A stretch of 42,624 bases of DNA from an uncultured Phycisphaerales bacterium (lineage in GTDB: Bacteria; Planctomycetota; Phycisphaerae; WQYP01). Made by a program: the position numbers and the translations under genes. Position 1 is the first letter of the stretch. Every line of letters begins with the position of its first letter. The notes beneath the pieces are model-generated. The model saw only the letters and a list, made by a program, of their open reading frames with translations, searched no databases and had not been told where the DNA came from. The stretch covers positions 1 to 42,624 of the forward strand of contig CAIMWO010000093.1 of NCBI GenBank assembly GCA_903845195.1, in the 5' to 3' direction. This document shows positions 3,420 through 4,694 of the stretch, one piece after another.

Positions 3420-4694
3420 TCACTCCCCAATCCGCCTCAAGAACTCCTTCTCATCAATCACCTCCACCCCCAGCTTCTTCGCCTTCTCCAGCTTGCTCCC
3501 CGCCTCTTCGCCCGCCAGCACAAACGACGTCTGCTTGCTCACCGATTCTGTCGCTTTCCCTCCCAGCTCCTCAATTCTCTGCTTGATCTCCGTGCGCGAG
3601 AACTTCGCCAGCGTCCCCGTCACCACGATCGTCTTGCCCGCCAGCGGCCCAATGGGGAGAGCGTTGAACGGTGTTGGTGGCCGCTCTAGATCGGAATGGG
3701 TAACGGTTACAGGTGGCACACCAATTTGGTTCTGCGCGCGAAGCATTTCAAGAAACCTTGCTTCATCAATAATCTTGATCTTCGAGCCGTCGGCAGATAG
3801 CTCTTTTGCTTTTTCCAATTTGCGTGTGGCGTCTCCCCTGTCTTCTGACCGTGCCAAGACATTTTCGCCAACAACGAGGTAGTCGGTTTTTCCCGATACG
3901 TAGTTGTTTGCCTGACCATCTTGTTGTGTTACCTGCTGCACTGCCTCTGCCCTCGTCAGGTGTCCAAATTCGCCGGTAAAAGTAAAGTGCAGACCAGAAA
4001 AGCGGTGGTCTGGAGGGGCGGCTTCGACCAAGTCGATCACACAGGAACCGTTCTGTTCATCCAGAACGTCGGAGTCATCATCTTGCCCGGGAATAATCTG
4101 GGTATGTCCGTTGCCTTCGAGCCCGTTGATAGTCGAATGAGTCGCAATCGCACACGAGTCGGGATACCTGCGAAAGAACGAAGTGAGGTTTTCAATCCCG
4201 ATAAGGCCACCGAGCCGAATAGCAATTTCCGCACAGGCAATGGCATCAGCGCCGGCATCATGGTGCCTTAGTTGAAGACCAAAAAGGGAAGCAAGAGTTC
4301 CCAAACGGTGATTCGGCAAGCCAGGGAGGGCGTATCTGGCGAGTTCCACCGTGCATATCCAATCGCATACAGGTTGGGGAATCACGTGGAATTCGAGGCA
4401 GGCGTGGAGGACTCGCATATCAAACGCCGCGTTGTGTGCGATGATCGGAAGTCCCGTGAGTCGTCCTGAGAGGCTTGGCCATATCTGGCCAAAGTTTGGA
4501 CTTTGAGCAACGTCCGCTGGCTTGATGCGGTGAATCGAAATATTTCGCTGATTGAACGCCATTGTCGGCGGACGAATGAGATCAGTGTAGACGGCGTCGA
4601 TCGCACCATTCTTGACGATGGCGATTCCAACCGCACAGGCGCTGCTTGCATCCGAATTGGCTGTCTCAAAATCAATCGCGGCGAAATCTCGCAT
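3420..4694 (-). CDS. DEDDh-type 3'-5' exonuclease (DnaQ/epsilon-like) fused to two C-terminal BRCT domains.
   Basis: Exo motifs are AIDFETAN (Exo I), [13 protein letters not shown] (Exo II) and HHDAGADA (Exo III-epsilon). Two BRCT-like modules follow ([15 protein letters not shown]... and [21 protein letters not shown]...[14 protein letters not shown]). A GGAG RBS lies 9 nt upstream. The gene sits 40 nt downstream of the ligA stop, in the same orientation. Confidence 0.8.

Follow-up and report, generated by a model that had tools for sequence, protein, structure and literature searches.

How does an exonuclease come to end in the BRCT domain of a ligase? The question is raised by a 42,624-nt stretch of DNA from an uncultured Phycisphaerales bacterium (contig CAIMWO010000093.1 of assembly GCA_903845195.1; hereafter the window), in which a gene for a DEDDh-type exonuclease with two BRCT modules (exo, with BRCT1 and BRCT2) begins exactly 40 nt beyond the stop codon of ligA, as read from the sequence. 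The first-pass annotation of this DNA had stated the length of that gap (4695-4734) correctly, and had rightly described BRCT2 as nearly collinear with the C-terminal BRCT of the adjacent LigA: amino acids (aa) 350-424 of the exonuclease and aa 751-825 of the 826-aa LigA open reading frame (ORF) are identical at 55/75 positions (73%) without a gap (E 9e-30), and as DNA the two are direct repeats of 69-73% identity with a spacing of 1318 nt. It had explained this likeness as domain capture by duplication of the ligase BRCT, an explanation that is not supported in that form, as BRCT2 is nearer to the LigA BRCTs of the clade and has the composition of the resident genome, and the adjacent BRCT lies in a foreign block. 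Together with the lack of an exonuclease at ligA in relatives, these data led us to the view that BRCT2 is the resident ligase's own BRCT, and that it was probably captured when a foreign block, consisting of the 3' half of a ligA and an exonuclease gene, recombined into the resident ligA.

The compositional evidence rests on a strong asymmetry of the native genes, which have G at 59-73% of third codon positions (G3) on the minus strand and C at 71-73% of them (C3) on the plus strand, with a GC skew of -0.3 to -0.5. The G3 of ligA falls from 68% to 27% after codon 362 (nt 6027), which is the maximum-likelihood change point (Fisher 9e-31), and the G3 of exo rises from 21% to 73% after codon 348 (nt 3650), where BRCT2 begins (Fisher 1e-17). 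Low G3 extends throughout the ligA 3' half, the spacer, the exonuclease, BRCT1 and the linker, a block of about 2.4 kb (~3651-6027) whose genes are just the ligA 3' half and the exonuclease. The ligA-side junction falls within a conserved OB-fold motif, between VSRASL and HNFDE, and the exo-side junction where the coding sequence of the resident LigA BRCT starts, between G and PLAGKT. Extreme skew is native to the clade, reaching +0.42 to +0.55 on the ligA strand of relative L091 and +0.41 on that of L090. The window also holds an internal control: the unskewed block from 31.8 kb opens with a tRNA-Ser gene (31741-31828, plus strand) followed by a tyrosine integrase gene (31969-33333, minus strand), and the presence of these two at the start of the other long unskewed block indicates that a lack of skew is here a sign of acquired DNA. 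The foreign block within ligA is not ameliorated at all, which suggests that the event was recent.

Comparison with clade relatives divided the locus in the same way. The N-segment of the window's LigA is 70-80% identical to that of relatives, within the clade's own range. Its successive C-segments are 51-65%, 39-53% and, for the BRCT, 61-75% identical to those of relatives; within the nearest subclade the corresponding values are 75-80%, 67-73% and 83-93%. BRCT2 shares 87% of its residues with the LigA BRCT of protein P0241 and 79-81% with those of four others, compared to 73% with the LigA BRCT beside it. At the nucleotide level, BRCT2 is 80% identical to the LigA BRCT of P0241 (locus L090) and the adjacent BRCT is 64% identical to it, with 69% between BRCT2 and the adjacent BRCT. 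BRCT2 also shares G3-rich codons with L090, and its RIGE end, followed by the stop codon, is common to the LigA BRCTs of four relatives (P0241, P0242, P0245 and P0208). An exonuclease gene was absent within 6-8 kb of ligA in 5/5 clade relatives (L008, L009, L090, L091 and L092), whose downstream genes all differ.

Coordinates of the features of the ligA-exo locus in the window, with the evidence for each.
Feature	Position	Strand	Evidence and remarks
exo-BRCT-BRCT gene	3420..4694	-	Intact ORF, 424 aa + stop; identical protein on 8 contigs; Pfam, NCBIfam, AlphaFold2
DEDDh 3'-5' exonuclease domain	4170..4694	-	aa 1-175; RNase_T match, motifs, Foldseek
BRCT1, long family-type	3738..4013	-	aa 228-319; alignment to NF004844/PRK06195; pLDDT 75-93; foreign composition
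Disordered linker	3651..3737	-	aa ~320-348; pLDDT <50; foreign composition
BRCT2, resident LigA-type	3423..3650	-	aa 349/350-424; C-terminal end RIGE + stop as in clade LigAs
ligA-exo spacer	4695..4734	-	40 nt, GGAG upstream of exo ATG; inside foreign-composition block
ligA	4735..7215	-	826-aa ORF; 4735..7113 (792 aa) by gene callers of public assemblies
Resident 5' part of ligA	6028..7113	-	Codons 1-362 of the 792-aa gene; Ia, adenylation, start of OB
Foreign 3' part of ligA	4735..6027	-	Codons 363-792 + stop; rest of OB, Zn finger, HhH with large insertion, own BRCT at 4741-4965
Inverted repeat (I1, I2)	3314..3403		Arms 16-17 nt, 46-56 nt apart; between exo stop and convergent glycosyltransferase gene

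These observations suggest the following course of events. The foreign block of about 2.4 kb would have recombined into a resident and essential ligA, bringing with it first the 3' half of a ligA from another organism, complete with BRCT and stop codon, then the 40-nt spacer, and last the frame for the exonuclease, BRCT1 and linker. One crossover would have occurred in the OB-fold motif of ligA and the other at the very start of the resident BRCT. The resulting ligase would be a chimera of a resident N-half and a foreign C-half, and the original ligase BRCT would now be the last domain of the incoming exonuclease. Proteins of the exonuclease's family stop at FLxMIR, and the window's frame continues for ~30 codons beyond its FLEMLR with no stop codon. 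Given this extension of foreign composition, it is very likely that a linker and a LigA-type BRCT were already present in the donor. The donor BRCT and the upstream ligA 3' half may then have served as two homology arms, allowing entry by a double crossover or a gene-conversion-like process.

Several points weigh against this course of events. Donor and recipient DNA are strongly diverged: the two BRCT copies share ~69-73% nucleotide identity, a level at which ordinary RecA recombination works poorly. The block may have come most directly from a closer relative in which the mosaic was already present, or have entered by some other mechanism. The donor's architecture is deduced, the best database matches being 53% identical for the foreign ligA half and 49% for the exonuclease. 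The five relatives without the exonuclease are just 70-80% identical to the window in the LigA N-segment, which leaves some room for an earlier resident exo-BRCT-BRCT gene that was partly overwritten. The locus is also clonal, with zero polymorphism over 421-12698 among contigs L001-L003, so that selection on the fusion is not measurable.

The nearest known processes are integrative elements at the 3' ends of tRNA or protein-coding genes and homing co-conversion, in which the incoming DNA likewise supplies a substitute 3' part and the target remains intact. As in such elements, the displaced original 3' end lies beyond the insert (in the window and in loci L007, L094 and L097), and the length of the replaced flank varies. 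Unlike in such elements, ~1 kb of resident ligA between the junctions is gone, so that the event was not a simple single-site insertion, and the displaced end is reused as a domain of a cargo protein. They differ too in that the block has no integrase, transposase or known homing-endonuclease domain: a search of 3651-6027 for these (LAGLIDADG, GIY-YIG and HNH among the last) returned none, the Pfam families present being RNase_T and the BRCT families.

Association with ligA is not confined to the window. The nearest exo homologues adjoin ligA, co-directionally in L007 and convergently in L094/L095 and L096, and linkage also occurs at the alphaproteobacterial loci L015, L041, L097 and L099/L100 as well as at L068 and L028. 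In a broad sample, ligA was adjacent in 4/80 genomic loci. Thus the linkage to ligA for which the first-pass annotation had proposed a survey does recur in relatives, and the co-directional layout is not conserved, L094 and L096 being convergent. The annotation had also named a finding that would count against it, a routine DnaQ paralogue with no ligA linkage; an exonuclease with one BRCT is indeed routine, but the linkage is present.

L007 has the order ligA-exo-BRCT1-BRCT2 with an exonuclease 46% identical to the window's, and its BRCT2 and linker match the adjacent ligA end at 85% (nucleotide) and 92% (aa) identity. An omega of 0.08 between L007's two BRCT copies was considered as evidence of function and rejected, as their divergence may date from a time when both were ligase BRCTs in different genomes. 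In L094, exo is inverted between ligA and a truncated ligA-BRCT remnant. A 66-codon ORF at 724-924 of L094, on the minus strand, encodes a LigA-type BRCT without its N-terminal third, with 67% identity to the BRCT of the adjacent LigA; it appears to be the displaced, truncated end of ligA. In L096, a low-GC block spans exo and the 3' part of ligA.

In the alphaproteobacterial loci L015, L041, L097 and L099/L100, the sole BRCT of the exonuclease is of the LigA type, and the gene lies 20-32 nt after ligA. The G+C content of third codon positions (GC3) of L015 ligA is 0.84-1.0 up to codon ~475 and 0.2-0.6 thereafter; that of its exo is 0.24-0.56 over codons 1-250 and then 0.92 and 0.84 over codons 251-302, within the LigA-type BRCT. 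L099 switches at ligA codon ~350, and its exo BRCT returns to 0.92 and 0.84. Both loci are therefore three-part GC3 mosaics of a resident ligA 5' part, a foreign ligA 3' part with exo, and a resident BRCT. L041 and L097 form a before-and-after pair, in which the 3' part of the L041 ligA BRCT is collinear with the 3' part of the BRCT of the first exonuclease (exo1) of L097, at 81% nucleotide identity over 5.2 kb. In L097, the exo1 BRCT is followed by a second exonuclease gene (exo2) that is common to L041, and L097's own ligA 3' end is just 72% identical to that of L041. Across the loci, the left junction ranges from ligA codon ~350 to ~725, and the right junction is always at the start or in the middle of the BRCT. 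On this compositional and collinearity evidence, the same mosaic appears to have arisen independently in three alphaproteobacterial loci. A comparison of the alphaproteobacterial LigAs for phylogenetic discordance, with four sequences, was too distant to inform. L041 exo and L097 exo2 are 93% identical in aa at a synonymous divergence (dS) of 0.76 and an omega of 0.07, and 47/49 residues of the captured BRCT part are kept at a dS of 0.49; judged from these rates, the alphaproteobacterial exo genes are under strong purifying selection and persist as functional genes. The region 2645-6802 of L097, from an uncultured Brevundimonas, holds the two tandem exo-BRCT genes after ligA, the first of low GC3 (recent) and the second host-like (old), as if the same insertion had happened twice in succession.

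This recurrence raises a bolder view, which we think improbable: exo-BRCT genes at ligA could constitute a small selfish cassette aimed at the essential ligase gene. Flanked by homology arms, with the 3' half of a ligA upstream and a LigA-type BRCT downstream, the cassette would be able to enter related genomes by recombination at ligA, and each entry would overwrite part of the host ligase and take the host's BRCT as the last domain. Entry might even be actively assisted in a homing-like manner, if the exonuclease attacked nicks or ends at ligA or antagonised the resident ligase. If true, this would amount to a new kind of mobility directed at a gene, and to a way in which domains can be gained repeatedly, in at least two phyla.

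The rival that survives best concerns what became of BRCT2, which might be a functionless, in-frame leftover of the displaced ligA end on a protein that works as an ordinary exonuclease with BRCT1. An unameliorated block and hence a recent event, the extreme rarity of the architecture, the unfused and truncated remnant in L094, and the lack of polymorphism with which to show selection would all fit such an accidental passenger. However, both co-directional two-BRCT cases (the window and L007) keep the frame and a full-length BRCT, the alphaproteobacterial gene, which is under strong purifying selection, has no BRCT other than the captured LigA-type one, and BRCT2 is predicted to fold confidently. 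We therefore consider a functionless BRCT2 possible but doubtful.

We consider it unlikely that the locus had a resident ligA-exo-BRCT1-BRCT2 arrangement whose middle, from the ligA 3' half to the linker, was overwritten by that of a diverged relative, making BRCT2 the exonuclease's own. Ordinary homologous replacement would suffice for this, the stop-less donor linker means that the fusion predates the event somewhere, and L007 has the same architecture in a second lineage. Against such an allelic replacement, none of the five clade relatives has the exonuclease at ligA, and BRCT2 is as near to the relatives' LigA BRCTs as those are to each other, which would not be expected after a long stay in a different protein. 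Moreover, the window protein and P0002 stand alone as proteins with an exonuclease and two BRCTs among the Pfam-checked candidates from the best 150 representatives.

The duplication proposed by the first-pass annotation, in which the BRCT end of the neighbouring ligA was copied in place onto a pre-existing downstream exo-BRCT gene and selected as a nick-targeted editing partner, is disfavoured for this window, and we now rate it as very unlikely. The collinear direct repeats 1318 nt apart and the recurrent linkage of exo with ligA are what it would predict, and L007, taken alone, does resemble a local duplication, given the close match of its BRCT2 and linker to the adjacent ligA end. In the window, however, BRCT2 is closer to the LigA BRCTs of other organisms (79-87%) than to the adjacent one (73%), the two copies have opposite codon compositions with saturated synonymous differences (proportion of synonymous differences, pS, 0.80), and the ligA 3' half is itself foreign; the alphaproteobacterial before-and-after pair, in turn, shows insertion into a BRCT rather than duplication onto a pre-existing neighbour.

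That the mosaic is a metagenome assembly chimera joining two organisms at conserved ligA sequence, as might be feared of a conserved gene in loci that are all metagenomic, was rejected as next to impossible on the identical DNA in independent assemblies: the same sequence recurs in at least six contigs of different samples and sources (ENA contigs named k141_... and ...scaffold_..., JGI and Logan), a chimera would require two in-frame joins between ~70%-identical sequences without long shared exact words, and the replicate loci L097/L098 and L099/L100 were each assembled twice independently. The identical protein occurs on eight contigs, six of them with DNA, from different samples and sources; the DNA of contigs L001-L003 is identical to the window over 421-12698, and other contigs show a few mismatches at contig ends. 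Over window positions 310-420, L001-L003 differ at 35 clustered positions, and there is no alignment below position 298, a pattern suggestive of strains that differ structurally where the Glyco_transf_10 gene ends.

What kind of protein has received the ligase BRCT? The first-pass annotation's reading of a DEDDh exonuclease with all three motifs was borne out. Pfam RNase_T matches aa 6-157 (E 6e-14; 53.3 bits against a cutoff of 24), and the catalytic motifs DFETAN, HNAAFD and HHDAGADA occur at residues 8, 87 and 144. The residues D8, E10, D92, H145 and D150, which correspond to the Exo I DxE, the Exo II D and the Exo III H-x4-D, are invariant in 29 homologues. An AlphaFold2 model has three well-folded domains, the exonuclease (1-178), BRCT1 (228-320) and BRCT2 (350-424), with per-residue confidence (pLDDT) of ~85-95 for the first and 89-94 for the last, joined by linkers (181-225 and 321-347) that are disordered at a pLDDT below 50. 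The modelled exonuclease domain superposes in Foldseek on DinG-exo, PolC-exo, ExoX and Pol III epsilon, with target-normalised template-modelling (TM) scores of 0.79-0.82 for stand-alone ExoX and ~0.8 for Pol III epsilon (probability 1.0). With both the catalytic residues and the predicted RNase H-like exonuclease fold in place, the protein belongs to the DEDDh (DnaQ-like) superfamily, and 3'-5' exonuclease activity is predicted for it.

The two C-terminal BRCT modules were likewise confirmed. Pfam BRCT (PF00533) scores 85.8 bits (cutoff 21.3; E 2.5e-24) over two stretches, of which the second covers aa 350-420, and the secondary-structure elements of both, E236-H319 and E355-H421, are confidently folded in the model. 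A packed tandem-BRCT pair of the BRCA1/MDC1 type, which reads phosphopeptides, was not predicted, the modules being separated by a disordered linker of ~30 aa (predicted TM score, pTM, 0.48); this is a weak negative, as the alignment was shallow (11 sequences). The tandem BRCTs of the model are thus two modules in series and not a packed pair. No clamp-binding motif (QL.LF-like) was found in the exonuclease by a simple pattern search, such motifs being degenerate.

Residues 3-320 align with profile positions 2-308 of 309 of NF004844/PRK06195 (E 1.8e-76) at 257.5 bits, under the curated cutoff of 373, as a diverged member with the same architecture. Proteins of this family, named 'DNA polymerase III subunit epsilon' and ~309 aa long, likewise consist of a DEDDh exonuclease, a variable linker and a long BRCT. 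The window protein differs in adding a linker and a LigA-type BRCT (aa 321-424) and in sitting in a mosaic ligA locus. Homologues of ~300-320 aa number in the thousands, across many phyla and in temperate phages of Streptococcus and Staphylococcus, and nearly all cover ~75% of the query; PHROG 192, 'DNA polymerase exonuclease subunit', is the phage counterpart. An exonuclease with one BRCT is therefore a common, already annotated architecture, and just the linker and LigA-type BRCT2 are unusual. Our survey of exo-BRCT-BRCT loci drew on 12 contig look-ups as well as on protein searches. In the best 150 of 1.84 billion representatives, with multi-stretch candidates checked by Pfam, there was no further protein with an exonuclease and two BRCTs; the multi-stretch matches were rejected as multi-BRCT proteins without an exonuclease or as exonucleases with one BRCT and long linkers. 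One other such protein, P0002 (46% identity), was found in 90% clusters.

Identity as Pol III epsilon itself was rejected, since TIGR01406 (dnaQ_proteo) scored 34.7 bits against a cutoff of 222.7 and the C-terminal region is BRCT, with no epsilon tail. The mycobacterial DnaQ type (NF004719/PRK06063) scored 100 bits against a cutoff of 389. Mycobacterial DnaQ likewise joins a DEDDh exonuclease to a C-terminal BRCT and is the best experimental precedent for a DnaQ-like exonuclease recruited by a BRCT; it is a second replicative proofreader whose BRCT, and not its clamp motif, is essential for the antimutator role (PMC11348249). It carries a clamp-binding motif and one BRCT, whereas the window protein has two BRCTs and linkage to ligA. 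BRCT2 itself matches the C-terminal BRCT of LigA, represented by residues 586-670 of E. coli LigA (2owo; E 4.5e-20) and also by 5tt5, 1l7b and 1dgs (1dgs and 1l7b from T. filiformis), and aligns to the ends of the LigA profiles NF005932 (positions 592-663 of 664) and TIGR00575 (583-652 of 652), its matches covering the final ~72-85 residues of LigA profiles and structures. In LigA this BRCT sits on the HhH domain of the ligase, whereas BRCT2 sits on an exonuclease and the neighbouring ligase bears a different, foreign BRCT. The PADLOC profile PDLC05027 of the candidate defence system PDC-S48 also matched the exonuclease domain at 135.5 bits, in part (profile positions 4-162 of 411); a literature search found no paper on PDC-S48.

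A phage origin of the ligA-exo module was considered and rejected: exo-BRCT proteins are common in Streptococcus and Staphylococcus phages and in IMG/VR, but ligA was nearby in 0/80 viral loci. In Poriferisphaera corsica (L093; CP036425, 2115784-2126722), an exo-BRCT homologue lies in a prophage-like region with a HigB-like toxin, HNH and TerL, not at ligA. In the RefSeq Staphylococcus phage records NC_007054 (26260-27150), NC_055041 and NC_011344, the homologue is labelled 'DNA ligase'; the GenBank twins of these records call it an exonuclease or epsilon subunit, and the ligase name is likely a misannotation, presumably from the BRCT. Protein P0017 is a LigA fragment with three BRCTs, and the set P0017, P0368, P0374, P0415 and P0471 includes stand-alone proteins of 4-5 LigA-like BRCT repeats without a catalytic domain, so that BRCT-coding segments seem prone to duplication in some lineages.

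As for function, the exonuclease would trim 3' ends while flexibly tethered to two independent BRCT modules, of which BRCT1 would be the family's own recruitment module. The LigA BRCT enhances DNA binding or nick sensing (PMC7470946) and mediates binding of the partner XthA (PMC7530888). BRCT2 may confer such ligase-BRCT contacts with DNA or partners and could draw the exonuclease to the same nicks or partners as LigA. A nick-targeted 3'-end editing partner of LigA is best described as a candidate role. Since gene orientation is not conserved, the linkage to ligA may instead reflect a targeting mechanism rather than partnership.

Co-transcription of ligA and exo is plausible from the sequence, given the 40-nt gap and a scan of the locus for promoters and terminators that found no terminator-like site between the two genes on the coding (minus) strand; counts in that scan were no higher than in shuffles. 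The inverted repeat beyond the exo stop codon may be the terminator hairpin of the original ligA. An Rfam scan gave a single find, a tRNA. The foreign LigA half contains a large insertion in the HhH region (window ~5300-5560; aa ~525-600 of the 826-aa ORF), which brings the ligase to 792 aa; clade relatives have shorter insertions at the same HhH position.

The compositional asymmetry is itself unusual. Over window 1-31000, as over 1-14073 of L091 and 1-2000 of L090, it is strand-specific and not gene-specific, with ~70% G at third positions on the minus strand and ~70% C on the plus strand, and the skew in the window and its clade is far above the usual bacterial replication skew. The remaining ~10.8 kb of the window (31741-42624) is unskewed and lower in GC, with many short ORFs and no ORF of at least 200 aa past 36.2 kb; it looks like an integrated island or prophage running off the window's end. 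Other short unskewed patches, at ~14800-16000, ~23000-23800 and ~25000-28000, the last including an aldo/keto reductase gene (26240-27145) and a methyltransferase gene (27162-27974), may be further examples of what is seen in ligA, small blocks of DNA that were acquired or recombined.

What is new in this protein is an extra, captured BRCT on an exonuclease-BRCT of a known kind; the recurrent replacement of half of ligA, in which its BRCT is captured, is the more interesting result. If the proposed course of events is right, the origin of the domain is corrected: the extra BRCT would be the ligase's own original, and the essential ligase would run on a foreign C-terminal half. The locus would then be a natural case in which half of an essential gene is replaced and the incoming gene reuses the displaced end as a domain. 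The mosaic recurs independently in Planctomycetota and in Alphaproteobacteria, and part of the widespread exonuclease-BRCT family may have been built repeatedly in this way, by insertion into ligA. The recurrent association of exo with ligA could mean that the two enzymes cooperate at nicks, that the exonuclease competes with LigA, or that ligA is targeted by some mechanism, and it offers a testable lead for which Brevundimonas and Caulobacter-like alphaproteobacteria are tractable relatives.

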